NCBI GenBank assembly: GCA_963847445.1 | Contig: CAWJZV010000046.1 | Coordinates: forward strand, 384,001-448,000 | Reading direction: 5' to 3' | From: an uncultured delta proteobacterium | GTDB lineage: Bacteria > Desulfobacterota > Binatia > UBA9968 | DNA: 64,000 nt | Part shown: piece after piece, positions 5,905-59,508 of the stretch | Position numbering within the stretch: position 1 is the first letter of the stretch | Layout: each line of letters begins with the position of its first letter | Program-made: the position numbers and the translations under genes | Notes under the pieces: model-generated | What the model was told of the DNA's origin: nothing | Database searches by the model: none | The model's input: only the letters and a program-made list of their open reading frames with translations

Positions 5905-5929
5905 GGACGCTGTCGCGGAACAATTAGTC

Positions 5930-9169: not shown

Positions 9170-9197
9170 CGGGATTGGCGACGAAGGAGAGACGGAC

Positions 9198-11590: not shown

Positions 11591-14500
11591 ATGGAGAGCG
11601 AAAAGTTAATCGAGCGTCTTGCGACTCTTTCTCCCGCGAAGCGGGCCTTACTTGAGTTAAAACTGCAGCAAGGCCGCGGTCGCACGGCTGCGCAGATGAC
11701 CATTCCACGGCGAGCCCAGCGGGAGCTTGGCGCCGCTGTCGTTCGCGCAGCAGCGGCTGTGGGTGCTCGACCAGCTGGAACCTGAAAGTTTCGCTTACAA
11801 TGAGCGATCGGCGGTCCGTTTGGACGGGCCGCTAGACATCGGCGCGCTGCGTAGTGCGTTGAGTGCTGATAGTCGAGCGCCATGAAGTGCTGCGCACGAC
11901 CTACGGCCTAACCAATGGCGGTGAGCCGGTACAGCAAATCGGCGCAGCCGTGGGCATCGATTTGCCGGTCATTGACATCAGTGAAGTTGCTGAGAGTCAA
12001 CGCGATGATGCGGTGCAAAGGATAGCCGCGGAGCTGAGAGAGCGTTCTTTCGATCTGCGGAACGATTTGCCGCTACGGCTGTGCGCTGGTCAGACTCGGT
12101 GCCAATTCCCATGTATTGGTCGAGGTGAAACATCATATCGCTTCCGATGGTTGGTCGAGCGGTATCTTTCTCCCGCGAGCTCGCCGCTATTTACACTGCG
12201 TTGAGCCAAGGCCGGCCTAACCCGCTTGGCGAATTGCCGGTTCAGTACGCCGATTATTCGTTGTGGCAGCGAGAATGGCTCCAGGGCGAAGTATTGGAAA
12301 AACAGCTCGCCTACTGGAAAGAGCAACTGAAAGATATTCCGGTTCTTGAGTTGGCGATGGACCGGCCGCGCGGCGGTTCGCTGAACCGCGCCGGCGCGAA
12401 ACAAAGTGTGACCTTGTCAAAGTCATTGGCCGATCGGTTAAAGGCGCTGAGCCGTCAAGAGGGCGCCACGTTGTTCATGACGTTACTCACGGCGTTCCAA
12501 GTCTTGCTGCATCGCTACACGGGACAAGACGACATCGCTGTGGGCTCACCGATTGCTGGACGGACACGGTCGGAGACGGAAGGACTGATCGGATTTTTCG
12601 TCAACACCTTGGTGCTGCGAAGCAAGCTGTCCGGCAACCCGACGTTTAAAGAACTATTGGCACAGGTACGGGAAACCGCGTTGCAAGCGTACGAGCACCA
12701 AGACGTGCCCTTCGAGAAGTTGGTCGAAGAGCTCAGGCCCGAGCGCGATCAAAATCACACGCCATTTTTTCAAGTCATGTTCGCGTTGCAAAATATTCCG
12801 CGGGGGAATCTTGAATTGGCGGGACTCCAGGCGACTCCCGTCGAGGTCGCTTCTTCGGGGGCGAAGTTCGATATCTTCGCGGCATTTATCGAACGCGAAG
12901 GCGAGATGATGCTTGCGCGTAGAGTACAGCACGGAGCTATTTGCAGCGGCGTGGATCGAGCGTATGTTGGGCCATTTTCAGACATTGCTTGAAGGCATTG
13001 TCGCCAAACCAGAACGATCGATCGACACCTACCCGATCCTTTCCGAAGCCGAGCAGCAACGGTTGCTGATCGATTGGAACGATACCCAGCGAGACTCTCC
13101 CGCATGGCCGGTGCGTTCACGAATTATTCGAAGCACGCGTTAATCAAAATCCCGAAGCCGTTGCGCTGGTTTTTGAAAATGAGAGCTGGAGCTACCGAAA
13201 ACTAAACTGCCGGGCAAATCAACTGGCGCGCTATCTGCGCGGACTCGGCGTGGGGCGGGACACTCTGGTGGCGCTTTGTGTCGATCGATCCATGGAAATG
13301 GTTGTCGCTTTGCTTGCCATTCTCAAGGCCGGTGGCGCCTACGTGCCAATGGACCCTGAGTATCCCAAAGACCGTCTCGAGTTTATGCTGCGCGACACCC
13401 AGGCACCGGTACTATTGACCCAGAAGCGGATAAGTCAAATCCTGCCAGATTACCCGGGACAATGCGTTTGTCTAGACGGGGATCGTGAGAGGATTGCTCG
13501 CGAAAGCGATGAGAATTTTGCTCACGAGGCGACGGCTGACAGCCTCGCTTATGTAATCTACACTTCCGGCTCGACCGGAACGCCCAAGGGTGTAATGATT
13601 CGGCATGGCAGCGTCTGCAACTTCTTGGCCTCCATGGCTGCCGAACCCGGATTGTGTAGTAAGGATACGCTGCTTGCCGTTACGACGCTGTCATTCGATA
13701 TTGCGGGATTAGAGATTTATTTGCCGCTCTCAGTAGGCGCTCGAATTGTTTTGGCGAGCCGCGATGTCGCCGTCGATGGATTTCGGTTAGCAGCGCAATT
13801 ATCAGATTGTGGTGCGACGATGATGCAAGCCACGCCCTTTACATGGCGCATGCTCTTGGCGAGCGGTTGGCAGGGTAGTCGAGAATTGAAGATTCTCTGT
13901 GGTGGTGAAGCGCTTTCCGAGGATCTAGCCAGCCAGCTCGCGCCTCGCTGTGCCTCGCTGTGGAACATGTATGGTCCCACGGAAACCACTATCTGGTCGT
14001 CGATCCAAAGAGTACCAGAGAATATTGGCAAGATTTCTTTGGGTCGGCCGATTGCCAACACGCAATATTATGTTCTTGATGGGCATTTGAATCCCGTTCC
14101 GGTCGGGGTTGCGGGCGAGCTCCACATTGGGGGTGCAGGTTTAGCGCGAGGATATCTGAACCGGCCGGAACTCAGTATCCGAAAAATTTATTTCGAATCC
14201 CTTTAGCAACAATCCGAGGCAGCGGTTGTACAAGACCGGAGATCGGGTGCGATACTTACCTGGGGGTGAGATCGAGTTTCTCGGTCGAATCGACGATCAG
14301 GTCAAGATTCGCGGTTATCGCATCGAACTCGGTGAGATCGAGGCGATGCTCGGTCAACATGCCGGAATCCAACAAGCAGTCGTGCTCGCACGAGAAGACA
14401 TTCCGGGAGACCGACGGCTGGTGGCCTATGCTGTTGCTACTCCAGGCTTCACCCCTTCGGCAAGCGACCTGCGCACCTTTCTGCTGCAGGAGCTCCCCGA

Positions 14501-15792
14501 GTACATGGTGCCTTCGATTTTCGTGTCATTGGAATCATTGCCACTGACTGCCAATGGTAAGCTTGATCGTAAGGCGCTACCAGCTCCAGACCAAACTAGG
14601 TCCCGAACTGAGCGAAACCATTACCCCGCCTCGGACCCCTGTCGAGGAGATACTCGCAAGTATCTGGTCTGAAGTTCTCAAACTCGACAAAGTCGGCATC
14701 CATGACAACTTCTTTGATCTGGGCGGGCACTCACTGCTAGCCATCCAGGTCATCTCACGATTGCGACGAAGTTCAGGATGGATTTGCCTGTGCGCACTTT
14801 GTTTGAAGCGCCGACAATCGCGCAATTGGCGGCCCGTCTTGAACATCAAACCAAGCCGGTGGTCAGTTCAAACGGGAAGGCTACTTATTCCCATCTCATT
14901 GAGCTTCGTAGCGGACCGAACCAAAAGCCGATATTCTGCTTTCCCTATCGCTGCGGTGTCCAGGGCGAATACACACACTTCCTGCGGCTCGCGAAGTACA
15001 TGGAGGAATATTCATTCTATGGGCTCCAGGCAAAAGCCGCCGACAGCCATACGCCGCCGCACGCATCGGTTGAAGAATTGGCATCAAACTATGTCCGCGA
15101 GATAGAAGATTTTCACCCCAACGGTCCTTACTACTTAATCGGGGACTGCGCAGGCGCGCCAGAAGCCTATGAAACGGCCCGGCAATTGTCGATGCGAGGC
15201 GAGAAGGTGGGATTGCTCGTGCTCTTGGATGCCAAGGGCCCATATATGCCGGGCAGGTATTGGCGCCTGGGACCCTATTCGATAAAGGATTTGGATCTCC
15301 TACGCAGCCGGTTACTGAGTTCACGATTCTGGATGTGGTGCAGGAATTTGGATGCAGCGTCAAGTTTCCATTGGCAGGAGAGCAGGAAGCTTCCGAATGG
15401 AGAACGTTGGCGTTATTTAGGTCGGAAAGTTTTTGGCGGGCTAAAAACTCAAATAAGGGGCGTCGCAGAAGTACACCTCGGAGCCGTCCCAGGAATCTGA
15501 AGAGGTGTTCAGCGCAAGTGAGGAAGAGCTTCTGCAACACGTCGCTCGCGCTCGAAGTCAGTATCGGAGCAACTGGCCGAGCGACTATCCTGGCCGGCTT
15601 GCTGTTATCATCAATGAACAATGGTACGGGTTCGATCGCACGTTTGGCTGGGCAGAAATGGCTGCCGGAGGTGTCGAGACCTATGCTATTCGTGGGGACC
15701 ATATTTCTTACATGCTTGAGAATGTGCCGATGGTCGCCGACCGGTTACGCGCATGTCTAGAAAAGGCCCGTAAATCCCACCGGAGAGTTTAG
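11591..15792 (+). CDS. Terminal NRPS module C-A-T-TE; A domain predicted to activate Gly; frameshifted
   Basis: N-terminal [13 protein letters not shown]; HHIASDGWS; [21 protein letters not shown] and [12 protein letters not shown] give code DILQLGMIWK (Gly-type); FFDLGGHSL; TE-like domain with [11 protein letters not shown] and GDH. Confidence 0.9.
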
Positions 15793-16079
15793 CTGAAAGA
15801 TTCACGCTGTTAGGTCTGCCCATACCCTTGTCTACGCGAGGCCGTATATCTTGGGGAACCATCGAAAAGCCCCGCAGCGCTACGCACCACGGCTATTTCA
15901 GGGGAACTTAGTCATTTTTGGCGATGATGAACATCTCGAGCTCCTATGTCGATTTGCGCGGCCATTTGCAGGAGAGACGTCTCGACCAGTTTCGATCTTG
16001 GCGCGGCTGTGGACTCGCAAATTGGTCCGTCAGCTGGTACAACGAACCAAGCCTGCCGTAAGTAATCAATCTTGTCATC

Positions 16080-16168
16080 GGAGGGGTGGGAGAGCGGTTT
16101 AATCCACCGGTCTTGAAAACCGGCGCCCACTTCGTGGGCCGCGAGTTCAAATCTCGCCCCCTCCGCCA
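16080..16168 (+). tRNA. tRNA-Ser(TGA)
   Basis: GGAGGGG/CCCCTCC acceptor stem, anticodon arm CCGGT-CT-TGA-AA-ACCGG, long variable arm, GTTCAAATC T-loop, encoded CCA. Confidence 0.95.
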
Positions 16169-16297
16169 TCACTTCAAGCTATCGCGATGCGTTGAGGACG
16201 GAGAATCGCCGATCGCATATCGTTAAACCTTCGACGCTTGCGCATCCGATATTGCTCTGTATAGCTATCAGCATCAGCTTTGGAGAGGATGGATTCC

Positions 16298-17699
16298 ATG
16301 GCTAATTCTGCTGCACCGACTTTACAGTTCCTGGGCGCCGCCGGCGGTGTCACCGGATCGAAGTTTCTATTCTCAAACAATTCGGACCAAGTCTTAATCG
16401 ATTGCGGTTTGTTCCAGGGACTGAAAGAGCTGCGCCTGAGAAATTGGGCGCCGTTGCCCATCGATCTCGCCCAGTTGCGCTCTGTCGTTCTCACCCATGC
16501 CCATATCGATCACTCGGGCTATCTGCCGCGAATCGTTGCCAAAGGTTTTCGCGGACCGGTTTATGCGACACCGGGAACTTGCGATCTGTTGGGTGTGATG
16601 TTGCCGGACGCGGCGCACTTGCAGGAAGAGGAGGCGCGCTACGCCAATCGCAAGGGCTACTCGAAGCATTCTCCTGCGTTGCCGCTGTACACTTGGAAGA
16701 TGCCGAGGCGGCTTTGAAGTTACTGCGGCCGGTGCGCGTCGGTGAAAAAGTCGAAGTAGCCAAAGGCGTTGTGCTCGACTTCGGCCGGGTCGGTCATATT
16801 CTCGGCGCTGGTTCGGCGCGCTTTAGCTTTGAGATCAACGGCCAAAAGAAAACCTTGGTCGACTCGGGTGATCTGGGTCGCTACGACCGGCCGATCTTGA
16901 AAGATCCCGAGCCGGGCGGCAGCGCGGATTGGCTGATGATCGAGTCGACTTACGGCAATCGCATTCATCCAAAGGATTCCGAAGCGGCGTTGCGCGCGTT
17001 GATTAAGGAGACCGCGGAACAACGGCGTTGTCTAATCATCCCTGCGTTCGCCATCGGCCGGACCCAAGACTTGGTCTATACGATTCGCAAGATGGAGGAT
17101 GAAGGGGAGATCCCGGCGATTCCGGTGTACGTCGATAGCCCGATGGGCATCGAAGCGACCGAGATTTATTCGCGCCACACCGATGAGCATGATTTTGCAA
17201 TGGCGCAGCTGAGCAGTCACGAGCGCAACCCGTTGCGCTCGCGCCATATGATCGTGGCGAAGAGCCCGGAGCAATCGAAAGCGATCAACGATGCCAAGGG
17301 CGCGTTGATTATCATTTCGGCGAGCGGCATGGCGACGGGTGGCCGGGTGCTGCACCATTTGAAGCATCGATTGCCCAATCCGGATACGACGGTCTTGCTC
17401 GCCGGCTACCAGGCCGAGGGCACCCGCGGTCGTCGCTTCAAGACGGCGCCAAGGAAATCAAAATGCTCGGTGAAGTGATTCCGGTGCGCGCCAAGGTGAG
17501 AGTCCTCGACGGCTTTTCCGCCCACGCGGATCAAGGCGAGATCCTCCGCTGGCTCGCCACGTTTACCAAGCCGCCGAAGATGACCTATGTCGTCCATGGT
17601 GAGAAAGCCGGCGCGACGGCACTGGCTGAGGCGATTCGCGAACGGCTCAAGTGGAACGTCGAGATCGCCAGGTTTCAGCAGAAAGGTGAACTGGCGTAG
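16298..17699 (+). CDS. MBL-fold/beta-CASP metallo-hydrolase (RNA-processing family); frameshifted
   Basis: [68 protein letters not shown]. Confidence 0.9.
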
Positions 17700-17767
17700 A
17701 ATGGAGGTGGGACCGGGCGGCCTTCGGTGCGCACTGGCGCAAAGGGTCGATGAAGGGCGAAAACAAA

Positions 17768-18378
17768 ATGCTCGATCCGATCTGTGACATGACTGTCGAT
17801 CCGGCGAAGGCTGCCGGGAAATTCGACTTCGATGGTACGACTTATTATTTCTGCAGCGTCCATTGTCAGAATATTCCAAACCGATCCTGCCAAATATCTC
17901 GCTGCCGCTAAGGTGCGCCAGAGTTCGCAACCATCGGCGCCGGAGGCGCACCCGCTTGAATCGAAACCGGAGATTGCCGGCGCTATCTACACCTGTCCGA
18001 TGGACCCCGAGGTGCGCCAACAGGGTGCCGGCGCCAAGTGCGGCATGGCGCTGGAGCCGCTCGACATCGGCGCGGCGCTGACCAAAACGGAATATACCTG
18101 CCCGATGCATCCCGAAGTCGTCAGCGATGCGCCGGGCTCTTGTCCGAAATGCGGCATGGCGCTGGAGGCGCGGACAGAATCTGTGGGCACGGCGGTGAAG
18201 CCGGTGTTTACTTTGAAGCAGCGGCAGTGATTACCATGTTGGTCTTACTCGGCCAGGTGCTCGAACTGCGCGCACGCAGCAGGACCAGCGGTGCGATCCG
18301 TAGTCCCATGATCGCCAGCGCGGCATGACTTCAGTCAGGTCGGTGATTTCAAATGCGCTGCGATAAGTTGAGCTTAAC
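17768..18378 (+). pseudogene. Collapsed Cu-transporting P1B ATPase (CopA-like) remnant: YHS domain, two heavy-metal-binding repeats and fragments
   Basis: [28 protein letters not shown] (YHS), two YTCPMxPEV...KCGMALE repeats, then [31 protein letters not shown] joined directly to the C-terminal PMIASAA...VISNALR. Confidence 0.8.
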
Positions 18379-42362: not shown

Positions 42363-42680
42363 TTATAACGCTTCGGCGTGTAAACGAACGCCAAGGGCCT
42401 TGGCAACTCTCAGGACTGTGGCAAAGCTTGGATTACCTTTATTGCTCAGCGCCTTGTATAAGCTTTCGCGACTAAGGCCCGCATCGCGTGCCACACTCGA
42501 CATTCCTTTGGCACGAGCGATATCGCCGAGCGCTCTAGCGATACCGGCCGGGTCATCTGGCGCTTCGTTCAGCCACGCGTCGAGATACGCAGCCCTTTCA
42601 TCCGGTGTGCGCAGCTGTGCTGCTACATCATAAGGCACAGTCTTTGTTTTTCCGGTGGATTTAGATAACTTTTTGCGCAT
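42363..42680 (-). CDS. Addiction-module antidote protein (HI1420-like HTH antitoxin)
   Basis: YDVAAQL, ARALGDIARAKGMSSVARDAGLSRESLYKALS..GNPSFATVLRV. Confidence 0.9.
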   Translation of the reverse strand: MRKKLSKSTGKTKTVPYDVAAQLRTPDERAAYLDAWLNEAPDDPAGIARALGDIARAKGMSSVARDAGLSRESLYKALSNKGNPSFATVLRVAKALGVRLHAEAL

Positions 42681-42690
42681 GATTGTTCTC

Positions 42691-42978
42691 CTACAGATTT
42701 TGCGCCAGCGAAATGGCTTTTTGTATGTCTCGCTGTTGAGTTGATTTGTCCCCACCTGCTAGCAGAATGATGATTTCGTCTCCGCGTTCCATGTAGTAGA
42801 CCCGATACCCGGGACCAAAATCGATCTTAAGCTCGCAGACACCTTCGGTGAGCCGCCGATATTGCCCGGGGTTTCCGTGCACGAGTCGATCGACCCGCAC
42901 CTGAATGCGCGCGCGGCCTGTACGGTCTTTGAGAGAGTTGATCCAGTCCCGATAGACCTCGGTCATCCCCACTCGCAT
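42691..42978 (-). CDS. RelE/ParE-family toxin (HI1419-like), toxin-first TA pair
   Basis: WINSLKD, ARIQVRVDRL, GVCELKIDFGPGYRVYY, LLAGGDKSTQQRDI. Confidence 0.9.
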   Translation of the reverse strand: MRVGMTEVYRDWINSLKDRTGRARIQVRVDRLVHGNPGQYRRLTEGVCELKIDFGPGYRVYYMERGDEIIILLAGGDKSTQQRDIQKAISLAQNL

Positions 42979-43152: not shown

Positions 43153-44458
43153 TTACTGTTTGATATCTCGCGGCGCGGTCTTTTTTAGCAACAAGGCGAG
43201 AAGCTCGAGGCGCTCCTTAGAAAGATTCTTGAGCGCGGATGACGAACCATCGCTCTCGCGGGCATACGCCTCTTGCTTCACCGCAGGCACAGCAGCCAGA
43301 TTTTCCAGATATTCCTCAACCGGCGCGATCGAAAGCTTCGAAACGTAATTCTCTGCGGCCTCCCGGGAGGCTGTGGATAGCTCGTCATAATGCTGCCGAT
43401 CAGAGAGAAGTCGCTTCAACGCGTCGAGCCAAGGCCGAATATCTTGATCGGGGACGAACGGGACTGGAAGCATCTGGTCATCTCGGCGCGTCTGGTAGCG
43501 CGCGATGGGCTCAACCGGCAAGAGATAGTCCACGCCTAGTTTTGCTTCGGGTAGGCCGCCAAGATTGCTAGCCAAGACCGGGATTCCTCTGAGCATCGAC
43601 TCGACGACGATCTTGCCAAAGGCTTCCCCCCACAGCGATGGCACCAGCATAATGCGGGTCCGGGCGAAAATCTGATCTATATCCTCGGTCGGCTGAAGCA
43701 GCTCCACATTAGGAAATTGTTTTAGGGCAACCCGGTCTGCAGCGGTAGTGGCCCAAGTCGGCACTGCGGCAAACCTTTCCGCAGGTAAAGCGCGCGCCAG
43801 CTCTAAAAAAATGGCAATGCCTTTGATCGCCGACGGGTTGACCATCGTAATGAAGGCGTTATCCAATGATCCGGAGTGGGGCCACGGTGGGCTCCCGTAA
43901 GCCGGCAAGGAAATGGCGACCGAGTCCAGGCCGCCCCATTTATAAATATAACTCTTCAGGTAATTGCTGACCGCTATGATTCCAGCCGTCCGCTGTAGCA
44001 TTTGTGTCCTTCAACGGATCCGGCGAAAAACACTCGGGACCGAAAGGCAGAGTCGCCTGGCTGTGCGATAGATAAACAACACGTCCCGGCATGCTCTCCA
44101 GGGCAGCCGCCAGGGCAAGATAACTAGGATCCTCGGATATCAAAATCCAATCCGGCGAAAACTCTCCGACCTGCTTCAGAAGCTGGCCGCAAAATTGACT
44201 GGTGTCGGCGAGTTGGTGAACCTGAACGCCCTGGAGATCAAATCTCTCGGTGCAAGGCGAGAATCCCGCTTCGGTCGGATTCAATGACTCGTTGCGCGAT
44301 CCGCGGCGCGACGCGAAATGCGTTGCGGTGTGCGCCAACGCGAGGACTCTGCACAGGTGGCCTCTTCGGCTAAGATATTGCAGCAGCTCGCGGTTTGATT
44401 TTGCCGCCCCGGTCCAGCTCGGCGAATACGATAATTTCTGCGCCAGAAATATTTTCAC
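43153..44458 (-). CDS. GT4 (GT-B) glycosyltransferase; frameshift near 44005
   Basis: ORFs 43940-44458 and 43153-44001. LSRRGH, IAVSNY, NPSAIKG, LVPSLWGEAFGKIVVESMLRGIPVLASNLGGLPE. Confidence 0.88.
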
Positions 44459-44471: not shown

Positions 44472-46670
44472 TCAGTCCTGGCTCTGATCTCTTCTGGCTA
44501 GCAAGGATTCAACCTGATCATCGGATAGTCCTTCGATTTTCTTCAAAACCGCATCAAGTTCATCGACGCTGGCTGCATCGGCTTGTGCCATTAGAATCTC
44601 TCGGCAGAGTCCGCCAATAGTAAGTTTAGTCGTAAAGAATAGTCTCACTGGGAGCTCAACGCCCAAATCTTTTCGGATGCGGGAGAGAACCTGCATACCG
44701 AGAAGGGAGTGACCTCCCAAATCGAAAAAGTTGTCATCGACGCCAATACGCTCCAATCCCAGCAACTCCGACCACATGTGAGCCAGACGGTACTCGAGCG
44801 GAGAACGCGGAGGCACGAACGGCACGACGTCCCGCGGCAGAGGACGGCGCGTTTGTAAAACCACCTGGTGGATTCGCTCGGCGTCATTAAGTTCAATGGC
44901 AATAGAACTTAACAGCGACGCCTTTTCTCGGGCATCTCCCGAATCGGCGGAAATGACCGAAGGAGCCTCGTTCTCGGCGCTCGTCGCGGTGATTGTCGCC
45001 GCCTCCGGCGGCCGGTATTCGATGGCCGCCGCATACACGGCGGGAAATCTGAAAAGAAAACCTCCGTCAATTGTTTCCTTCAAATCCGCGCCGACAATCT
45101 CCAAAAACTCCAAGGCGGGGCGATTTTTCTTGGTTTGGAGATAGCGCACTTCGACTCGGTTTAAACCTCGCTGCATGGCAATTTCGCCTAGTCTCGACAG
45201 CAGGCGATGCTCGACGCCTTTGCCGAGCGCGCGACAGCTCAGCAGGAAGGTGTCCACGAGAATGCCATCAACGGCGGTAAAAATTATCACGCCAACGAGG
45301 CCATAGTCGCCAAACCGGTCTCTCAGGTTTACGATGAGACACTCCGCGTCGTGTCCTTGACAGAGGCGCTGAATGTCGCTCTCGGAACGTCGCTGGGTCG
45401 TAAAGTTAAACTGATTGGTTCTCTGGGTTAATTCCGCCACGCGGGGAATTTGCTGCGGAACTAATGGCGAAATCTCAATTTTCAGATCGAGACCCGCTAG
45501 AAAATCCCTGAAACTAAGCGATGCATTGTGAAAGCTCGTCCGCTCTGAGCTCTGTTTGTAGGCTAGATTGCGTTGTTGCCCCTCGGCGGTGACCTTGAGA
45601 TGATCAAAGATCCACAGATGTGATAAAAACCGCCCCGCCTGTTCCGGGTCCCGCGGAACTTGGAAGGTTAACACTTCAGGGCAGTGCGATTGCACTTCCG
45701 CGCACTCGACAGGATCGTCATCGAGAAAGATGAAACTGTCGCTGCCGAGGTTCAACTCCTGCGCTAAAGCTCTGATGTTTTCCGATTTTTGCCGCCAATT
45801 GATTCGCCGGGCGACAAAATGTTCGAGTTTCAAAGGCATATCGGAACGATTTGCAAACACCTCGACGACATCCGCTTCATTGTTTTTGCTGCACAAACAA
45901 AGAAGCATTCCGGCATGATATTGTTCGAGCAGGAACTCTTGGATTTTTTTCCACGGCGGAGTTATCGCTATGCCAGCCGCGCCTTCTTCGCCGCATACCC
46001 CGCCCCAGAGCGTCTGATCGCAATCCAACACGATTACCTTATAGGGGTTGCTCGTAAGGCTGTAAATCTTCCGCGCGAGCATTGTCGCCAAGGCGCTGAA
46101 GAATAATGGCGTGTACGGGATATGGGCTAAACTGTCAGTGTGAGGATCATGATATTCCGCTACCGGATAGCAGGCGAATAGTTCAGCTGGCGAAATGACG
46201 TGGACTCCAGGTATTTCTTGCAATTCGGCCTGCAGCGACGCTGCTATATCTTCGAAAAATCGTTTTCTGTCCGGGTCCATCACAACCGCCGGTGACGCCG
46301 GACACAAACAGACGATCTGCGGCGTCGCCGAGCGCTCGGCGGCGGTTGTAACGGCGCGCGCAAAGTCGCGCGCGTCACGTTCGAGCGCCGGAAACGACAG
46401 TTCGGCAGCTTGCCGCCCTGCGGCACTCTTTTGCCAGTCTTCAAAGCATACCAGAATAATATTGACACCCGTGCGGTTGGTGCCGAGCAAGCTAGACGGA
46501 TCCACGAGCTGTTGAAATACCTGGTTGTACGGCGCAAAAGTGATCCGCGCCGGTATCTGGAGTTCCTCCAGCCAGAACGTCAGCGGTCGCTCGAGGGGCT
46601 CCGCCGTAAAGGTAGCAGTGATCGCAATCGTTCGCTCTGCGTTCCTAGGATCCAATTCATCATTCAACAT
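44472..46670 (-). CDS. FkbH-like HAD-IIIC glyceryl transferase fused to a C-terminal carrier protein
   Basis: KVIVLDCDQTLWGG, CSKNN, INW..KSENI, FIFLDDDP, ELTQRTNQFN, DRFGDYGLVG, FLLSCRALG; carrier motif FFDLGGHSL. Confidence 0.92.
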   Translation of the reverse strand: MLNDELDPRNAERTIAITATFTAEPLERPLTFWLEELQIPARITFAPYNQVFQQLVDPSSLLGTNRTGVNIILVCFEDWQKSAAGRQAAELSFPALERDARDFARAVTTAAERSATPQIVCLCPASPAVVMDPDRKRFFEDIAASLQAELQEIPGVHVISPAELFACYPVAEYHDPHTDSLAHIPYTPLFFSALATMLARKIYSLTSNPYKVIVLDCDQTLWGGVCGEEGAAGIAITPPWKKIQEFLLEQYHAGMLLCLCSKNNEADVVEVFANRSDMPLKLEHFVARRINWRQKSENIRALAQELNLGSDSFIFLDDDPVECAEVQSHCPEVLTFQVPRDPEQAGRFLSHLWIFDHLKVTAEGQQRNLAYKQSSERTSFHNASLSFRDFLAGLDLKIEISPLVPQQIPRVAELTQRTNQFNFTTQRRSESDIQRLCQGHDAECLIVNLRDRFGDYGLVGVIIFTAVDGILVDTFLLSCRALGKGVEHRLLSRLGEIAMQRGLNRVEVRYLQTKKNRPALEFLEIVGADLKETIDGGFLFRFPAVYAAAIEYRPPEAATITATSAENEAPSVISADSGDAREKASLLSSIAIELNDAERIHQVVLQTRRPLPRDVVPFVPPRSPLEYRLAHMWSELLGLERIGVDDNFFDLGGHSLLGMQVLSRIRKDLGVELPVRLFFTTKLTIGGLCREILMAQADAASVDELDAVLKKIEGLSDDQVESLLARRDQSQD

Positions 46671-46691: not shown

Positions 46692-48192
46692 TTAGGCGAT
46701 GTGACCTGACCATAAATGTGCAGCAGCCTTACTGCTCTCGAGCTGGTGCACCGTCACGAGGCGTCCGACAACGGCTTCGGCGAGCGCGACGCGCGGATAG
46801 CGGCCCTGTGGCCCGCCCCCGGAAGCATCGATGTTTTTAGCGCCGGCGAGGTTGACCCAAAAGGGATCATCTTCGGTCCTCGGCTTATCTGGGCCGACCA
46901 TACGGCGCAGCGCGGCCGCGCTGCGCCAGCTTGCGGCTCCAACGGCAATCCAGCATTGGTAGCGGTCCGGACTAGTCGTTAAAGTCAAAAACGCGTGAGG
47001 TCGCACCGCTTCGGCTGCCTGAGAATCGAGTTGATCGACCATTACCATCAAGGGTTCGCCCGGCCGGTCATTGGTCAGAGGCCGGATCATAACGTTTAAG
47101 TTTCCGATCGTCTGCAGCTTGCAAATGCGCTGGCAATCTCTCGAATAGTTGGTCGGGATCTAAAGCAGCCTCGGAAACAAGCAACTCGCCGGAATCAGTC
47201 GTCAGCAACAAGTCAAACCGATCCTTATCGACAGACAAAAATAGCGCAATGATGAGCTGCGCCTGCTCCAAGCAGGAGCGGGAATCAGTCGGTCCAGTTT
47301 CGCGGACGTCGAGACCGGTCATCAGGCGACGGTGCCCTCGGGCCCAGCGTGAAGTTGTGTGATCCGCTTCAGGTGCAGTCTTGTCTGTAAAGAAGCGCAC
47401 GGTCGCGACGTTCCACTTTTGATTAAAATGCTGGACTGTCCTCAGGTTCCAAGCTTCACTCCAGCGCAACATGAAATAGGGTAGATCCGACTCTTCACAA
47501 GGAGGCGGCGGAACGTAGCTGGTGACCGCCGTCGGCTCGATGTATACCGCTCCTCCGGCCTTTTGCACTTCCAAACACAGGTCAATGTGCTCCTGGTGGC
47601 TCAATAACTTTTCATCCAGCGGGCCGAGTTTCGCGAACACGTCCGTGCGAACCAACATGCAATGGAATTCCGCGTAGTCCCAAGCGCTTCTTTGGAGCGG
47701 CACTTCTAGGTTAGCCATGGGAGTATCGAAAAGATATTGCTCGTCGTAAAGCACTCTTTGCCCTTGTTGCTCGGTGAATTTTAAAATTCCCCCCGCCATG
47801 TGGATCTTCTGGCGCTCGATCTCACCAAAAAGATAAAGCGGTCCGACAATCCATGCTCCTGTTTCTTCGGCGCATTGCACTAAGGCCTCGAGCCAACCGC
47901 GCGTGACCAGCGCATCATTGTCCACGAAGACGATGTATTCGGTGCTGATCTCGCTGGCGCCGAGATTTCGCGCTTGGTTAGGCGACAAAAATTGGTCCGT
48001 GTGGATAAGTTTGAAGCCCTTTGATTCCGCCTTCGCTGCGATCCGACGGTACATAGGTTCGGGGGTGCCGGCGCTGACGTAAATCAGTTTGAAAGGAAGT
48101 GTCGTTTCCTGGTAAACGTTTTCGAGGGTGCGCTCACTATGGCTGAAACGCTCCCTCGGTACTATCACGACGGTGACTTGTGGTTCTGACAT
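46692..48192 (-). CDS. GT2 glycosyltransferase with C-terminal RepB'-primase-like domain; one frameshift near 47096
   Basis: GT2: VVIVPRERF, SPNQARNLG, VFVDND, EFHCML, EHIDLC. Removing one A gives ...DDRKL-NVMIRP... in frame with ORF 46692-47090 (MVDQLD, TTSPDRYQCW, LAGAKN). Confidence 0.75.
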
Positions 48193-48582: not shown

Positions 48583-49605
48583 TTAAGCTGATTGGGGCTT
48601 GGTTTTTCCCATTCCAAACGACTCCGCCAGCAGTTCGTAGGAGCGATGGCGCGGCGCGGGATCGTAAGTCCATGTGACCACGACCAGCTCGTCGAGGTCG
48701 AGACCTTTCGCGAGTTCTTTCAATCGCGTGGTGACCTGGTCTGAAGACCCGACAATCGCTTTCCGGTGTAACTTTTCCGCAATCGCCAATTCAGCGGGCG
48801 AATACGGGCGGGTGGCTTCCTCCGGCGACATCAGCGGCTGGCGGATGCCTAGTTTGCGATCGATCATGGCGCGCTCGCGCGATTTGAACTGGAACAGGGC
48901 TTCTGCTTCGGTATCGGCGGCCAGCGCCCAGACGCATATCGTGCAGATCGGCTTGGGATTATTTTCGCTCGGGCGATAGTTCTTGCGGTAAAGATCCAGT
49001 GCTTGCTCGACACCAAAGCCGTCGCTGAAGAAGTAGGCGAAGGCGTAGGGCAAACCAAAATAGGCCGCGAGTTGGGCGCCGTAGTCTGAGCTGCCGAGAA
49101 TCCACATCTCCGGACTCGTCGGTCCCGTCGGTTGGGCAACGATTTTCTGAAACGGGTGGCCTTCGGGCAGCGGTTTCCCGGACACCCAGTGTTGCAGCTC
49201 CTGGACTTGCCGGGGAAATTGATCATGGACATTCTGCGGGTTCGGATTGAGCGCGTAGGACGTCAATTGATCCGATCCGGGGGCGCGGCCGATACCCAGG
49301 TCGATGCGTCCCGGCGCGATGGCCTCCAGGACGCGGAACTGCTCGGCGACTTTCAGCGCCGAATAGTGCGGCAGCATGACGCCGGCGCTGCCGATACGGA
49401 TGCGCGGCGTGGTGGCGGCGATCGCCGCCATGAGGATCTCGGGCGCGGTGCCGACGATATTACCGGAGTTGTGATGCTCCGAGACCCAGTAGCGATGATA
49501 ACCCAGCGCGTCGCAATGGCGCGCGAGCTCGAGGGTCTCACGGATCGCATTGTCCTGCGCTCGGCCCTTGGCCGCCGTCGATTGATCGAGTACTGACAAT
49601 TTCAT
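48583..49605 (-). CDS. LLM-class flavin-dependent oxidoreductase (luciferase-like, group 1)
   Basis: MKLSVLDQS, RYWVSEHH, RIGSAGVMLPHYS, PGRIDLGIGRAPG, WILGSS. Confidence 0.92.
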   Translation of the reverse strand: MKLSVLDQSTAAKGRAQDNAIRETLELARHCDALGYHRYWVSEHHNSGNIVGTAPEILMAAIAATTPRIRIGSAGVMLPHYSALKVAEQFRVLEAIAPGRIDLGIGRAPGSDQLTSYALNPNPQNVHDQFPRQVQELQHWVSGKPLPEGHPFQKIVAQPTGPTSPEMWILGSSDYGAQLAAYFGLPYAFAYFFSDGFGVEQALDLYRKNYRPSENNPKPICTICVWALAADTEAEALFQFKSRERAMIDRKLGIRQPLMSPEEATRPYSPAELAIAEKLHRKAIVGSSDQVTTRLKELAKGLDLDELVVVTWTYDPAPRHRSYELLAESFGMGKTKPQSA

Positions 49606-49813
49606 GGATGACCTGCGTGTCGGGCACAGTTCATTGTCGAGTTTGTTGGGAAGAGCATTCATCACGAATAATACAGTGCGGCAAGGCCGCAACCAAACAC
49701 CGGAATATCTCGCGCCAAGCTCGCAAAGACCACCAAGTTGTGAGATCAAATCTCCTTGGGGCCGGGGTTGGGAGGCGTTCGCGTGCGCGCACTTGGCGCG
49801 AGAAACGCCTCGG

Positions 49814-50730
49814 TTAACCGAGCCGATCGCCGACGTTTAATCCCGCCTGTTTGGCAAATTCCGCAGCCGCTGACTCTTGGCGCCTGCGCCGCGGGCTTTT
49901 TTCACGGTTAGAGTGCCACCGTTGAGGGCGATGGTGATTTCTGCTCCACCGATGCCGGTCACCTGTCCGGCTGGCGCGGCATTATTGCCAGTCTGCAGCC
50001 GCGCGTCGAAGATGCGCACCAGCTTGCCGTTGTAGGTCGTGTGCGCGCCGGGTTGGGGGTCGCAGCCGCGGATTAGGTTATAAACTTCCTGCGCCGGTTT
50101 GGACCAGTCGATCTTGGCATGGGCGTCGTCGCAGATGGGGTCGTAATTGGCTTTGGATTCGTCTTGGACGATGCGCGGCGGGTTGCCGGCTTTGATGAGG
50201 TCGACCGCTTCGCCGATCGCTTCGATGCCCAGGGGAAAGATTTTGTTGAAGTACAACGATCCGGTGGTGTCGTCCGGCTCGATCTTCACTTCCTTTTGCA
50301 AGAGGATCGGCCCGGTGTCGATGCCTTTGTCGACCCAAAATAGCGAAAGTCCGGTGACCGATTCGCCTTTGATCAAGGCCCAGTTGATGGCGCTGGCGCC
50401 GCGATACTTGGGCAAAAGCGACGGATGAAAGCAGATGCTGCCGAGTTTTGGCACGCTGAAAACTTGCTGCGGGACGATCTGGGTGACGAACGCGAGAATC
50501 GCTAGATCGGCGTTCAACGCGACGAATTCGTCACACACTTCCGGCGCTTTGAAGGATTTAGGCTGGCGCACCTCGATGTGGAGATCGATGGCTTTCTGTT
50601 TTACCGGGTCGAATTTGCCGTTGGGCGGATCGGGCGGGCAATAGACCGCGACCACTTTCTCGCCTTTGCCGACGAGTTTTTCCAGAGTCTTTTCGGCAAA
50701 CGCCGCTTGTCCGATCAATATTATTCGCAT
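49814..50730 (-). CDS. Fmt-like formyltransferase / 10-formyl-THF hydrolase-domain protein; frameshift near the 3' end
   Basis: MRIILIGQAAF, GSICFHPSLLPKYRGASAINW, DKGIDTGPILLQ, NLIRGCDPQPGA. Confidence 0.82.
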
Positions 50731-50795
50731 TTGGTGAAACTCCGAAATTGTAGAGCTAGCGCGTTACGAAGACGAGCCACGATCACGATTTCTCG

Positions 50796-51323
50796 TTAGC
50801 CGATGATTTTAAAGTCGCCGCCCTTGTAGCTCCGGCATAGATTGACGTAGGTGGTTGAGCCCATCTTGATCCAGTGCAGCGCTTCGCCGGTAATTTCCTT
50901 CTTGACCTTGGCGGGCGCGCCGGCAGCGAGCACTCGAGGCGGGATGATCGTGTGCGGCGTTACCACGCTGCCGGCGCCGATCAGGGCTTCTTCGCCGATC
51001 TCGACATGTTCGAGCAGGGTGACGTTCATGCCGATGATCGCGCCGCGCTTGACCAGCGGACCTTCCATGATTGCGCCGTGGCCGATGGTGCAATCTTCTT
51101 CGATGATCGTCGGTGCTTCGCCGGAATGAATCACGCAGTTGTCTTGCACGCTGGTGCGGGCGCCGATGACGATGGGATTGGCGTTTTGATCCGAGCGCAA
51201 GACCGCGCCCCACCAGATGCTCGCTTCATCGCCGATGGTGACATCGCCGATGATCACTGCGGTGGGCGCGATGAACGCCGTGGGAGAAACATGGGGCCGT
51301 TTGCCTTTGTATTCGATGAGCAT
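50796..51323 (-). CDS. Gamma carbonic anhydrase family hexapeptide-repeat protein
   Basis: AFIAPTAVIIGDVTIG, VQDNCVIH, TIGHGA, AGAPAKV. Confidence 0.9.
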   Translation of the reverse strand: MLIEYKGKRPHVSPTAFIAPTAVIIGDVTIGDEASIWWGAVLRSDQNANPIVIGARTSVQDNCVIHSGEAPTIIEEDCTIGHGAIMEGPLVKRGAIIGMNVTLLEHVEIGEEALIGAGSVVTPHTIIPPRVLAAGAPAKVKKEITGEALHWIKMGSTTYVNLCRSYKGGDFKIIG

Positions 51324-51533
51324 GAAGAGCGAACCTCCGTAGATAAGTCACGATATTGGACGTGCCCGGGGAAATCAAGATTGTTGGTGCAATGTCGCGA
51401 GTGTGGATTGACTCGATTGGTAAAATTGTTAATGCTTTGCCAACTTTGCAGACCCTCAACCTAGCCCTCTCCCGCATGCCCGGGCGAGGGGAAAAGATTA
51501 GGAGAGCGGTCGATACCTATTGGAGGTTAGATT

Positions 51534-52601
51534 GTGAGATATTTTGCTGTCTTTGCGGTTTCGCTTTGGCCACTCATCGGTGCAGTGGACGTCGCGCTCG
51601 CGCAGACCCGCGAGGCGACTCTCGCGGCGCTGGGAAAACTTCCCGCCGCGGAGCGCCAGGCGCGTTTGGTCGAGGGGGCGAAGAAGGAGAACGGACTGGT
51701 TTGGTACTCGAGCACGACGGCGGAAGATGCGCTGGCGCTGAGCAAAAAGTTCAATGAGCAGCATCCGGCGATCAAGATCAATCACTTCCGTTCGTCCAGT
51801 GAGAAGTTGCTCGAACGGATTCTCGCCGAATCCCGCGCCAATGCTTTCAAAGCCGACATCGTTACCTTGCCCGAGCTGGAACTGTCGCTGATGATCCGGC
51901 GCAAACTGTTGCTGCGCTACGAAGCGGTAGAGAATTCTTTCTATCCCGCCGAGACCAAGGATCCGCGTGGTTTCTGGACCGGGCTGTACACCTCGGCGTG
52001 GGTGCCGGGCTACAACACCAAGCAGGTGGCCAAGGATCAGGCGCCGCGGACTTACAAAGATCTGCTCAACCCCAGGTGGAAGGGCAACATGGCGATGGAT
52101 AACGAGCCTTTCAACTGGTACGTGATCTCGCTCAATTATCTAGAAAAGCGCGACGGCAAGGAGGCCGCGGCCAACTACATGAAGCAACTGGCGGCGCAGC
52201 AGTTGCAATGGCGCAAAGGCCATTCGTTGATCGGCCAACTGATGGCGGCGGGCGAGTTTCCCCTCGCCGCCGAGCTGCAAGTGCACACCGTGGAGCGCGC
52301 CAAAGCGACCGGCGCACCGGTCGAATGGTCGGTGCTCGACGGCGTGATTCCGATTTCTAAAGTCGGCGCGGCGGTCACCAGTACCGGGAACAGTATTTAC
52401 ACTTCGGCGCTGTTTTTTGATTTTCTCTTGTCGCGCGGCGGCATGGAGACGATCCGCGCGAGCCGGCGGATCCCGACGCGGCCGGATGTCACGGCGCCGT
52501 ACTTAAAGCCGTACAAGCTCATCCCATTCGAGCCCCAGGCGATCGACGATTTCGACAAATACGTGACGTTGTTCCGCGATACCTTCAAGCCGGGAAATTA
52601 A
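51534..52601 (+). CDS. Orphan ABC substrate-binding protein (Fe3+/thiamine-like family)
   Basis: Signal peptide, GAKKENGLVWYSS, GYNTKQV, PRTYKDLLNPRWKG. Confidence 0.82.
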   Translation: MRYFAVFAVSLWPLIGAVDVALAQTREATLAALGKLPAAERQARLVEGAKKENGLVWYSSTTAEDALALSKKFNEQHPAIKINHFRSSSEKLLERILAESRANAFKADIVTLPELELSLMIRRKLLLRYEAVENSFYPAETKDPRGFWTGLYTSAWVPGYNTKQVAKDQAPRTYKDLLNPRWKGNMAMDNEPFNWYVISLNYLEKRDGKEAAANYMKQLAAQQLQWRKGHSLIGQLMAAGEFPLAAELQVHTVERAKATGAPVEWSVLDGVIPISKVGAAVTSTGNSIYTSALFFDFLLSRGGMETIRASRRIPTRPDVTAPYLKPYKLIPFEPQAIDDFDKYVTLFRDTFKPGN

Positions 52602-52740: not shown

Positions 52741-54199
52741 TTGCGCCGCTCTGCATTTTGCCGCTACCGACCCGTGATTTCACCGTCATCGACTCATAAC
52801 AGCGAAACCATTCGCCGTCTGGTTCTGATCAATTCCATCTTGGGTGTGACCATCGCGGGAGCTTCCGCGCGGGTCTTCATGATCTCGGTGCCGACGCTGG
52901 CAACGGCGCTCGATACCGACATGTTGGGCATCTCTTGGGCGCTGATTGTTTACCAGATGGCAGGTATCGGCCTGGGCGTGATCTGCGGCCGGCTGGGAGA
53001 TATTCACGGCCACCACAAGACCTACGGGATCGGTATGTGGGTGATGGCGCTGGCTTCACTGCTCTGCGGCTTTTCACAAAATATCTGGCAGTTGATACTG
53101 TTCCGCTTTCTCCAGGGTATCGGCGGCGCGATAATTCAATCTTCGGGACGCACGCTGGCTTTTAAAGCGATGCCCGCCGGCGTCCGAAGGAAAAGCCCAG
53201 GGGTTGATGGCGATGTCCCATCAATTGGGCTTCTTTATCGGTCCCCCTATCGGCGGGCTGATCATCGATCTGGTGCATTGGCGCGGGGTTTTTTTTCTCC
53301 TGTTTGTCCCGAGTCTGGCGGGCGCGGCTTTGTGCATGATGACGGGGCGCGCCGCGGCTGCCGCACCAATGCGCCGGCAGGCGATCGATTACCGCGGCGC
53401 CTTGCTGCTCTTCGCCTTGACGGTACTCGCGACGTTGTTGCTTGATCAAAAAGTCGCCCAGGCGGTGGGCACCGGCAGCGAGCTGTTGTTGGGGTCGGTA
53501 TTTCTCGCCGCGCTGTGGCTTTTTCTTGTCCACGAAAAGCGCGCGCCCAGTCCGCTAGTCGATCTATCGATTTTCTCGGTTAAAGTTTTTGGCTATGGCT
53601 CGGTGGGGCTGTTGTTCTGCAACATCAACCAGGGCCTGTCCACCTTCATCACGCCTTTTTACCTGCAACAGGTGCTCAACTTATCGCCGACGTTCATGGG
53701 CGCGATTTTTCTCGTGCCGTCGTTGTTGAGCATGGTGTTGTCGCCGGTGAGCGGCGCTCTCACCGACCGCATCGGTTCGCGCTTGCTGTTGATTGTCGGC
53801 GTGCTGGTGCTGATGGCGAGCTTTATCATCGGCGCCTACCTGCGCAGCGATTCTCACTGGCTGCTGCCGACGATTTTGTTAGCTCTTACCGGTATCGGTT
53901 CGGCATTTTTCAACACGGCATCGCAGGCGGCGATGATCCGCGCCTTGCCCAAGGAAAATTGGGGCACGGCGATCGGCATCATCAACGGGGTTTTCGGTCT
54001 TGGCCATATGCTCGGCATTTCCTTGAGCGGCATCTTCTTGACCCTGGCGTTTCGCTACTACACCGGCGATGCCGGCGCGACGCCCGACCCGGCGAATAGC
54101 TCTTTGTTCGTGGCGGCGATGAATTTGACCTACGTCTTTGCTTTGGCGCTCGCCGTCATCCCTTTGTTTACCTCGACTAAGATCAAGGGCAGGGAATAG
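52741..54199 (+). CDS. MFS transporter (DHA2-like); frameshift near 53180
   Basis: GRLGDIHG and GALTDRIGSR motif-A copies; many TM segments. Confidence 0.85.
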
Positions 54200-57983: not shown

Positions 57984-58732
57984 CTAGAGGACTTGGATCG
58001 GTCCTTCGGTTTTCCCATGGATGAATTGCTGTACCACTGGATTCGCCGATGCACAGAACTCCGCCGGCGGCGAAATGTTTTCGATGATGCCGCCGGCGAG
58101 CATAGCAATGTAGTCTGAGATTTCAAAGACTTGCGGAATGGTATGACTGACGATGATGCCGGTATAACCAAACTCGTTCTGAGTGCGGGCGATCAGTTGG
58201 TGAATGCTGGTGGCCAACACCGGGTCCAAGCCGGTGGTCGGTTCGTCGAACAGGACGATTTCCGGGTCCATGATCAGCGCCCGCGCCAATCCGGCGCGCT
58301 TTCTCATGCCGCCGCTCAGCTCGGCGGGAAATTTGCCGCCCATCTTGCCCAGGCCGACCTGCTCCAAGCGGCTATCGACCTTCTTCTTGATGTCGCTTTC
58401 GCTGGCATGCTGGTTTTTTCGCGCAGGGGAAAGGCGACGTTGTCGAATACACTCAGCGAGTCCAGCAGGGCGGCGCCTTGAAACAGCACGCCGAATTTGG
58501 CGCGCACTTCGTAGAGTTCTTTCTGGCGCAGTTTGGTAATGTCGACGCCGTCGACGAAAACTTCGCCGGCATCGGGCAGATAGAGGGCGTTCAAATGTTT
58601 CAGCAAGACGGTTTTGCCGCAGCCGCTGGTGCCGACGATGGTGGTGATCTTGCCGGTGGCGAACTCTAGGTTCACGCCGCGCAGGACCTGTTGGCCGCGA
58701 AAGCTCTTGTGTAGATTGGCGACTTGGATCAT
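57984..58732 (-). CDS. mlaF: MlaF ABC ATPase; frameshifted
   Basis: GTSGCGKT, LFQGAALLDSL, PAELSGGMRKRAGLARA, FDEPTTGLDP. Confidence 0.9.
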
Positions 58733-58737
58733 GGCGC

Positions 58738-59508
58738 TCAGAGCATGATGGAAGTCAGGAAGTAGTCCCAGACCAGAATGAAGACGAACGACAAGACCAC
58801 CGACTCGGTGGTCGCTTGGCTGACACCGGTGGCCATGGGCGGGGCGTGAAAACCCTTGTAACAACAGATCCAGGTGATGATCAGGCCGAAGGAAATCGAT
58901 TTGACGAAGCCGCTGTAGACATCGTGGAACACCACGCTGTTTTCGATGCCGGCAAAAAAACTGCCGGAACTAACCCCCAACATGGAGACCCCGACTAAGT
59001 AGGAGCCGAAGATGCCGATGACGTCGAAGATGGCGGTCAGCAGCGGCATGGCGATCAGACTGGCGATGATGCGCGGCGAAACCAGAACTTGATCGGGTTG
59101 ATCGCCATGGAGTCGAGCGCGTCGATCTGTTCGGTGGCGCGCATGGTGCCCAGCTCGGCGGCCATGGCGGAGCCGGTTCTGCCGGTGACCATGAAGGCGG
59201 ACAGCACCGGCCCCAATTCACGCAACAGACTCAGGGCGGCGGCCGAACCGAGATAGCTTTCGGCGCTGAATTTGCGCAGGCTATAGTAACCCTGGAAGCC
59301 CATCACCATGCCGGTGAAAAATCCCGACAGCGCGACCACGGACAGCGAATCCACGCCGATGGTTTTGATGTGGTAGACGATCAGGTTAAGCTTGGCCGGA
59401 CGGCGGAACACCAGCATGATCGCCGACAGGAGAAAGTTAAACATTTTCCCCATGCCGGCGATGCGTTCGATGTGAGCGTTGGCCGATGTGGCCTAAGAAA
59501 GAAATCAT
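58738..59508 (-). CDS. mlaE: MlaE permease; frameshifted
   Basis: LLRELGPVL, GRTGSAMAAELGTMRATEQIDAL, GVSQATTESVV. Confidence 0.9.

Follow-up and report, generated by a model that had tools for sequence, protein, structure and literature searches.

How does the catalytic fold of a plasmid replication primase come to sit behind a glycosyltransferase, and what would it do there? The question is raised by a gene at positions 46692–48192, reverse strand, of the window, by which we mean the whole 64,000-nucleotide stretch analysed here (contig CAWJZV010000046.1 of assembly GCA_963847445.1, positions 384,001 to 448,000, from an uncultured delta proteobacterium). A sequence-only reading of this DNA had proposed that two overlapping open reading frames (ORFs) belong to one protein, in which a family 2 glycosyltransferase (GT2) is followed by a degenerate domain of the RepB' type, the archaeo-eukaryotic primase (AEP) of RSF1010. 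The analysis supports both the joined protein and the homology, and the reading that we favor, with a probability of about 60%, is that of a natural-product enzyme of the GT-A glycosyltransferase fold carrying a pseudo-primase domain that has been exapted as an adaptor.

One gene interrupted by a surplus base

ORF 47068–48192 (374 aa) and ORF 46692–47090 (132 aa), both on the reverse strand, overlap by 23 nt in different frames and are one gene split by a single surplus base. Removal of one base near 47096–47103 joins the frames into a product of ~499 aa, in agreement with the homologues and with the ~500-aa protein that the sequence-only reading had obtained by dropping one A near 47096. The single-base surplus in that proposal stands and the exact run does not: within the frameshift site (47095–47103, reverse strand), the gap in an alignment with L001, an intact genomic relative 90% identical to the window, points to the AAA run at 47101–47103 rather than the run at 47095–47097 as the most likely place of the extra base, such that the joined protein reads ...DDRNLNVMIRP across the junction and not ...DDRKLNVMIRP. 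Contigs of sequencing runs X1, X10 and X9, which carry relatives 95–99% identical, omit one base at 47100, 47101 and 47106, respectively, and a fourth run has no coverage of the site. The peptides quoted in the earlier proposal (ALFLSVDKDRFDLLLT, LPAHLQAADD, NVMIRP, VMVDQLD, VRPHAFLTLTTSPDRYQCWIAV, VGPD, VNLAGAKN and YPRVALAEAVVGRLVT) are all present in the window ORFs.

A database search with ORF 47068–48192 returned 2851 proteins at E ≤ 0.001. Among the best 120 of these, 118 hold both parts in one chain, mostly of 480–520 aa, and the best homologue, P0001 (499 aa, 98% identical), reads through the junction in one frame. Because nearly all of these homologues are single proteins with both parts, the two-part feature is not a product of chance, and the notion of two independent ORFs can be set aside. 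Programmed frameshifting was also considered and is ruled out by relatives that encode the protein in a single frame. The domain, structure and model analyses of the C-terminal part described below were made on intact homologues.

Relationship of the C-terminal domain to the RepB' primase

What is the domain that follows the glycosyltransferase? It occupies residues ~303–499 of the joined protein (46695–47286, reverse strand, interrupted by the frameshift), and these C-terminal ~195 residues are almost certainly a true homologue of the catalytic domain of the RSF1010 RepB' primase. A profile of the full-length family compared with the sequences of the PDB matches RepB' chains 3h25_A (E 1.4e-7) and 3h20_A (E 3.9e-7) over profile positions 320–473 and RepB' residues 16–186, placing them ahead of every GT2 structure except the TagF chains, which align with the GT2 part and score slightly better (1.1e-7). 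A profile of the domain alone (alignment A4) gives E 1.2e-8 for 3h25_A and 3.3e-8 for 3h20_A, with the next match at E 0.26. The AlphaFold model of P0001 residues 302–499 has a mean predicted local distance difference test (pLDDT) score of 91.6 and a predicted template modelling (pTM) score of 0.87, and a Foldseek search of the PDB with this model yields three matches at E ≤ 0.001, namely 3h20 (9.3e-9, TM score 0.62), 3h25_A (3.1e-8) and the AEP domain of the cyanophage S-2L PrimPol (9.7e-4). The structural aligner VIA-align, run against 48,161 chains, gives Z 14.4 for 3h20_A (158 residues, root-mean-square deviation 3.2 Å), 14.0 for 3h25_A and 10.1 for the S-2L PrimPol, and the best chain outside the AEPs reaches Z 7.6 with just 76 residues aligned. 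In the ESM Atlas, 21 of 30 feature neighbours are clusters of the RepB' family PF16793, with a top score of 0.96.

The profile and structure searches thus both recover 3H20 and 3H25, as the sequence-only reading had predicted of the fold, although the window sequence alone lies below the PF16793 gathering cut-off: ORF 46692–47090 by itself scores 12.6 bits (E 0.13) against a cut-off of 24.3, and intact P0001 has no PF16793 match at E ≤ 0.01. At that same threshold PF16793 matches 15 of 86 scanned family members, the best at 1e-7.

Searched over 1.84 billion representative proteins, the domain profile finds 701 with E ≤ 0.001, of which 352 reach 1e-10 or better and 21 reach 1e-30 or better. Outside the fused family it picks up classical RepB'-like proteins, with E between 1e-29 and 1e-17. 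From the 150 matches listed, 26 were picked by length and domain position for a Pfam scan (23 of them without GT2); 21 of the 26 carry PF16793 and 7 also carry the RepB_primase_C helix bundle. Of six short matches (150–200 aa) that were checked as possible stand-alone domains, five lie on contigs of 923–1255 bp and are probably fragments, and the sixth, P0249, comes from a contig of 15 kb. When the C-terminal region alone was used as query, a word-indexed search gave 11 proteins, a number that reflects the word index and not the size of the family.

The likeness to RSF1010 RepB' (3H20, 3H25; PF16793; PrimPol-PV1 supergroup) extends in fold and sequence over the whole catalytic domain, and the two have in common the motifs IRP, (D)DL, ETSPxxYQxW and LAGxxN, including the motif-II Gln that PMC5862659 describes as typical of the RepB' family. 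The differences are that the fused domain lacks the helix bundle (PriCT-1 / RepB_primase_C), does not conserve the equivalents of D78, D134 and R145, and is found on a chromosome behind a glycosyltransferase in a biosynthetic cluster rather than in a plasmid replication or mobilisation module. Its closest relatives without GT2 are metagenomic RepB'-like proteins of 572–604 aa typified by P0247, the best non-glycosyltransferase match of the domain profile (E 1e-51), whose catalytic domain shares 42% of its residues with the fused domain of P0014 across 197 aa (E 2e-40), N-terminal helix included. Unlike the fused domain, P0247 keeps LDDLD, GAD and RLAGSLN together with the helix bundle, and on these features resembles an active primase; its first 285 aa are not GT2 and match nothing in Pfam. 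P0247 plausibly pictures the donor lineage of the fused domain. Intact catalytic motifs and a helix bundle behind an N-terminal ~285–330 aa without Pfam match are found in P0258 and P0259 as well as in P0247.

The glycosyltransferase domain and the linker

The catalytic core of the GT-A domain (PF00535) spans residues 1 to ~265 (47398–48192, reverse strand). ORF 47068–48192 scores 47 bits against the PF00535 cut-off of 23.3 (E 3.5e-12), and all 86 scanned family members match this family. The window copy has the DND motif D91-N92-D93 (FVDNDA), of which N92 and D93 are invariant in the family alignment A1, and it keeps the other family-invariant residues. The best NCBIfam match of the glycosyltransferase part is the mycofactocin glycosyltransferase MftF (TIGR03965, E 1.6e-17); at 63.5 bits against a cut-off of 280, over residues 3–118 only, the protein is not a member of that family. 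Among solved structures, the GT-A part of the P0001 model is closest to polypeptide N-acetylgalactosaminyltransferases (ppGalNAc-transferases), with Foldseek E ~1e-13 and a low identity of 12–19%, and this match is one of fold class and not of family. The full-length P0001 model (pLDDT 90.4, pTM 0.90) has a rigid two-domain arrangement. Between the domains lie linker helices specific to the fused clade (residues ~266–302; 47287–47397, reverse strand), which include the RFARGHRRLMTGL motif and in which R285, R288, R289 and G293 are nearly invariant columns of A1. Members of the sister clade that consists of GT2 alone align just to position ~263–274 of the family hidden Markov model (HMM).

Loss of the primase catalytic equipment

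Could the domain still make primers? PMC8567376 identifies D77, D78 and D134 of RepB' as catalytic and R145 as the residue that positions the dNTP, reports that the D77A, D78A and D134A mutants make no primer, and describes the catalytic domain as inactive without the helix-bundle domain. The helix bundle is required for dinucleotide formation. In the profile alignment, D77-D78 fall on the xDDLx motif of the family and R145 on the Arg that precedes LAG, with D134 falling in an insertion that has no family column. On this basis, 125 representatives of classical RepB'-like proteins were compared with the 118 fused proteins. The D77 equivalent is Asp in 120 of the classical set and Asp or Glu in ~105 of the fused set, and the motif-II Gln is present in 121 and 110, respectively. 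The D78 equivalent is Asp in 116 classical proteins versus ~56 fused ones, the R145 equivalent is Arg in 113 versus 41, and Asn at the N151 position is found in 110 of the classical proteins and in 40 of the 120 best homologues. Motif III (GAD) is absent from the fused proteins; in the classical set its Asp aligns in 81 of 125, and further copies of the motif can be seen offset from that column. The full DDLD is found in 33 of the 118 fused proteins. In the window copy and its close relatives, P0001 among them, D77, D78 and R145 are represented by D, Q and N, respectively, and VGPD, a possible counterpart of D134, is confined to the window's own subclade. A Pfam scan found no RepB_primase_C helix bundle in 86 members of the fused family, and the fused proteins terminate ~25 residues past the catalytic domain. 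The fold and the core motifs IRP, ETxPxxYQCW and LAGS are kept.

Because residues for metal and nucleotide binding are lost and the helix-bundle partner is missing, the fused domain is, with high confidence, not a working primase. This agrees with the suggestion of the sequence-only reading that it is probably catalytically dead, since degeneration of the catalytic residues is seen in the window copy and in the majority of family members. One observation weighs against so general a conclusion: an acid-acid pair and an Arg are retained in motifs I and IV of 31 of the 118 fused proteins, and residual activity in this subset is possible. A role in replication or mobilisation was considered separately and is ruled out by the lack of a helix bundle and of relaxase or plasmid genes nearby.

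Genomic context: an FkbH-like neighbour and small biosynthetic clusters

In what setting does the fusion protein work? Directly downstream, starting 21 nt after its stop codon, lies a gene (44472–46670, reverse strand) for a 732-aa FkbH-like glycerate-loading protein with a C-terminal peptidyl or acyl carrier (PCP/ACP) domain. It belongs to NCBIfam TIGR01686 (307 bits, cut-off 146.65), and its PP-binding domain (E 1.1e-15) has a GGHS motif in which G652, G653 and S655 are invariant and H654 is nearly so. Among named relatives, the best match is an HAD-IIIC phosphatase of 'Candidatus Binatia' (93% identity). Homologues of this protein also occur fused to condensation (C) or thioesterase (TE) domains. 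In suomilide-type non-ribosomal peptide synthetase (NRPS) pathways, as described in PMC13122637, FkbH domains take glycerate from 1,3-bisphosphoglycerate and attach it to a PCP, and the glyceryl group on the carrier-protein thiol serves as starter for NRPSs and polyketide synthases (PKSs). The arrangement found here resembles FkbH loading modules, for example that of BslA in suomilide/banyaside biosynthesis, in its FkbH and carrier domains, with C, adenylation (A), thiolation (T) and TE domains in the relatives; unlike the GT2-primase fusion beside FkbH, the glycosyltransferases of described FkbH pathways are late-acting and ordinary.

To place the neighbourhood among relatives, 185,579 species genomes were scanned with the family alignment, which gave at least 618 stretches, at least 565 of them encoding a relative, and the best 80 loci were kept. 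An HMM of the C-terminal domain matches 10 of the 80 (L001–L010). The FkbH-carrier gene stands directly downstream in all 10 of these fusion loci and in none of the 70 GT2-only loci, one of which has a weak carrier-domain match only. A second glycosyltransferase is present in 8 of the 10 fusion loci, either a GT4 (L001, L002, L006 and L009) or an EryCIII-like GT1 (L004, L005, L008 and L010). A conserved FkbH/GT4 neighbourhood, which the sequence-only reading had put forward as something to look for, is therefore complete for FkbH and partial for GT4, with GT1 in its place in four loci. Pfam matches further identify C-A-T-TE neighbours in L002 and L005, a C-T-TE neighbour in L006, A-T neighbours in L002, L003 (two) and L009, a phosphopantetheinyl transferase in L002, and DUF6817 genes in L003, L004 and L006, the first two of which have this gene between the fusion and FkbH genes. 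In L009, from a gammaproteobacterial metagenome-assembled genome (MAG), the GT4 that follows the FkbH-carrier gene is fused to a C-A-T NRPS module (13758–18302, 1515 aa), and this fusion physically ties the glycosyltransferases to the assembly line. The homologue listings of the fusion and FkbH genes have 24 identical sizes of longest contig in common, which suggests that in many metagenomes both genes lie on one contig. Action of the fusion protein in an FkbH-primed pathway is thus a probable conclusion.

In the window the GT4 gene (43153–44458, reverse strand) is present as two ORFs in frames −1 and −2, with a frameshift near 44001–44010 and Pfam matches to the GT4/GT1 group on both; in L001 it is a single ORF of 434 aa. 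Upstream of the fusion gene, lineage-specific genes at 48583–51323 (reverse strand) encode an MsnO8-type luciferase-like oxidoreductase, an Fmt-like formyltransferase and a gamma-carbonic-anhydrase-like hexapeptide protein, and these are syntenic only in L001 (one of the 10 fusion loci), such that the window and L001 have the common order gamma-carbonic-anhydrase-like, Fmt-like, MsnO8-type, fusion, FkbH-PCP and GT4. Two ATP-binding cassette (ABC) exporter genes come next in L001 only. In the window, an addiction-module antidote gene (TIGR02684, HI1420-downstream type; 42363–42755, reverse strand) lies beyond the GT4 gene in their place.

Origin and distribution of the fusion

When was the domain acquired? 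In a quick tree of the glycosyltransferase domains, the 10 fusion loci lie on one side of a branch with a Shimodaira–Hasegawa-like approximate likelihood ratio (SH-aLRT) support of 97, and the primase-derived domain was, by this topology, gained once. The shared branch also weighs against an overly strong reading of the FkbH association, since 10 of 10 then represents one event kept over time and not 10 independent ones. The association nonetheless persists at glycosyltransferase-domain identities to P0001 of ~45–57% (L002–L010), and the fusion loci are spread over Acidobacteriota, Chloroflexota, Gammaproteobacteria and 'delta proteobacterium' MAGs.

The 70 GT2-only loci are mostly cyanobacterial. 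They encode 68 proteins of 323–412 aa and two longer ones (541 and 652 aa), and their tails past the glycosyltransferase core measure 39–100 aa except in the 652-aa protein of L058 (336 aa). Among six such loci examined more closely, five cyanobacterial and one from Pirellulales, four (L047, L054, L057 and L075) have a polysaccharide-type context with GT4, GT2, Wzt-type ABC and sugar-epimerase genes. Given this setting of the sister clade, the gain of the domain coincides with a change of pathway. Within the window's taxonomic class, relatives were found in 13 of 150 sampled genomes, all 13 GT2-only, and a sample of 200 genomes from the phylum contained none at E ≤ 1e-60; such a patchy distribution is as expected for a mobile biosynthetic cluster. 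The mean column identity of the domain alignment A4 is 52%, and the pattern of conserved columns indicates that the pseudo-primase domain is under purifying selection at positions other than the old catalytic ones.

Integrity of the window copy

Is the frameshift in the window a property of the organism or of the assembly? When the proteins of L001 are laid on the window, frame changes appear in five genes, with at least seven shifts within ~11 kb: one in the gene at 53035–54196, three in that at 51392–52417, and one each in the luciferase-like gene (with the shift at 49643–49647), the fusion gene and the GT4 gene. The NRPS region at 1–15000 (forward strand) consists of many short ORFs, each with part of an A, C or carrier domain, including six separate carrier-domain matches at 1677–14778, together with a gene for a thiamine pyrophosphate (TPP) enzyme, and has the appearance of one large synthetase disrupted by numerous frame errors. 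Since frame changes also strike unrelated neighbours and this NRPS region, an assembly artefact is favored over the decay of a single gene, and we regard the frameshift as probably an indel error of the assembly. Apart from the single indel, the fusion gene is 98% identical to intact P0001 and free of stop codons.

An alternative hypothesis is that the window copy is a genuine pseudogene, with a real frameshift in the strain and an intact paralogue doing the work. The same genome (7.19 Mb in 48 contigs) does contain such a paralogue, with an open frame of 499 aa on another contig (G000:C42:28469–29929; locus L085, 9946–11436), and the GT4 gene in the neighbourhood of the window copy is broken as well. 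Moreover, no public sequencing run was found with the window sequence itself, the best word share being 0.51, and the extra base could on that account be a real mutation of the strain; this counts against the assembly explanation. The distribution of frame changes over unrelated genes and the otherwise undamaged coding sequence fit assembly errors better, and a true pseudogene seems unlikely. The paralogue belongs to a different type of cluster from that of the window: by collinearity alone, on which the naming of its neighbours is based, it is followed by an FkbH-PCP gene and then by a 395-aa gene corresponding to the EryCIII-like GT1 of L005, L008 and L010, and two further genes have the order and sizes of the NMT1-like and DUF5924 genes in those three loci.

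Two further observations concern fragmented genes. At 57984–58864 of the window (reverse strand), an ABC-transporter ATPase is matched piecewise by two overlapping ORFs, probably another split gene. Elsewhere in the genome, a 100-aa open frame at G000:C14:67452–67721 (L084/L086) matches only profile positions 266–356, covering the linker together with the first part of the primase-like domain, and may be a gene fragment.

A model for the function of the fusion protein

We hypothesize that the ~499-aa protein, which is soluble and composed of an N-terminal GT-A domain, a short helical linker and the RepB'-descended C-terminal domain, works together with the FkbH-carrier protein encoded directly downstream. 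In this model, the latter would load a glyceryl group on its phosphopantetheine arm, in the setting of small NRPS-like clusters with a second glycosyltransferase. The GT-A domain would then glycosylate the unit derived from glycerate, whether still carrier-bound or already condensed, and the second glycosyltransferase may extend the sugar. The likely product of such a cluster would be a glycosylated, glycerate-primed small molecule. The pseudo-primase domain, which is modelled as packed rigidly on the GT-A domain, may serve as a non-catalytic adaptor for the acceptor or its carrier. This adaptor role is proposed tentatively and on indirect grounds: the sister clade without the domain sits in polysaccharide clusters, the domain arose together with a new partner, and purifying selection acts away from the catalytic sites.

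The proposal can be likened to the accessory C-terminal domains of other GT-A enzymes. The ppGalNAc-transferases (GT27) likewise combine a catalytic GT-A domain with a C-terminal non-catalytic module, which is a lectin that guides the choice of substrate; the accessory domain of the fusion protein differs in having a primase fold. A more specific version, in which a single capture of a plasmid primase domain was followed by loss of its chemistry and by a new use in docking the GT-A domain on carrier-bound glyceryl, is doubtful at present. Complex predictions of the full FkbH-PCP protein (A3) with the pseudo-primase domain (A2), run with no controls, scored 0.23 and 0.31 against a mark of 0.32, values that speak neither for nor against binding. 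If the docking proposal were true, it would mean 'on-line' glycosylation in an NRPS-like assembly and the first primase-fold adaptor in secondary metabolism.

How do other explanations fare against an adaptor? The domain might only support the GT-A domain structurally or mediate its oligomerisation, binding neither a ligand nor a partner itself. The rigid full-length model (pTM 0.90) would suit such a role, as would the faster evolution of the domain, which in most members is 31–45% identical to P0001 compared with 44–56% for the glycosyltransferase part. However, the sister clade works without the domain, its gain coincides with the move beside FkbH-PCP, and motifs outside the hydrophobic core are conserved, for example SVDRDxFDL and LAGS, which together make a pure scaffold rather unlikely. 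The sequence-only reading had instead supposed that the domain binds nucleic acid or nucleotides, and either aims glycosylation at DNA or RNA or senses nucleotides. The RepB' catalytic domain is reported in PMC8567376 to bind single-stranded DNA specifically, and the retained fold, several core motifs, the conserved acid at the D77 position and the motif-II Gln are consistent with some remaining binding. However, the residues that have decayed (the equivalents of D78, D134 and R145) are those of the nucleotide pocket, W50 of RepB' has no counterpart in the profile alignment, and nucleic-acid enzymes are absent from the conserved neighbourhood, which consists of FkbH-PCP, NRPS modules and glycosyltransferases. 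In such a natural-product context this proposal does not hold up well, and we consider it improbable. That a subset of the family keeps a new kind of nucleotidyl transfer, neither priming nor DNA-dependent, draws on the 31 proteins with an acid-acid pair and an Arg, often with an acidic residue 3–5 positions before the Arg, and is highly improbable given that the GAD motif is gone, that these positions are conserved far less than in classical RepB'-like proteins, and that the D78 and R145 equivalents are both absent from the window lineage. The adaptor reading therefore remains the one that we prefer.

Implications

The sequence-only reading knew of no described GT2-RepB' fusion, and a literature search on combinations of primase, glycosyltransferase and FkbH, judged by its listings, likewise turned up no description of such a fusion, beside FkbH or elsewhere. 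Kazlauskas et al. (2018, PMC5862659) distinguish three domain organisations among 11 representatives of the RepB' family, including primase with PriCT-1 and relaxase with primase, and their paper does not contain the word glycosyltransferase. In databases the fused homologues are named only 'GT2 family glycosyltransferase' or 'hypothetical protein'. The protein is a GT-A enzyme whose accessory domain has an origin without precedent, and it marks an uncharacterised type of cluster. The domain itself is a RepB'-derived pseudo-enzyme domain within the RepB' branch of the AEP superfamily and not a primase; it is filed as a pseudo-enzyme because it lacks the catalytic residues and the helix bundle by which a primase functions. 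For annotation, this means that the fused proteins should not be named primases and that their PF16793 matches are no sign of plasmids.

The fusion is frequent in metagenomes of soils and sediments and occurs in several phyla, where it marks a class of small clusters with an FkbH-carrier protein, two glycosyltransferases and one or two NRPS modules. It offers a clear case of a replication-enzyme fold reused outside nucleic-acid metabolism through one capture event. If the domain is a module that recognizes the carrier or the acceptor, it would represent a new kind of recruitment domain in assembly-line biosynthesis.

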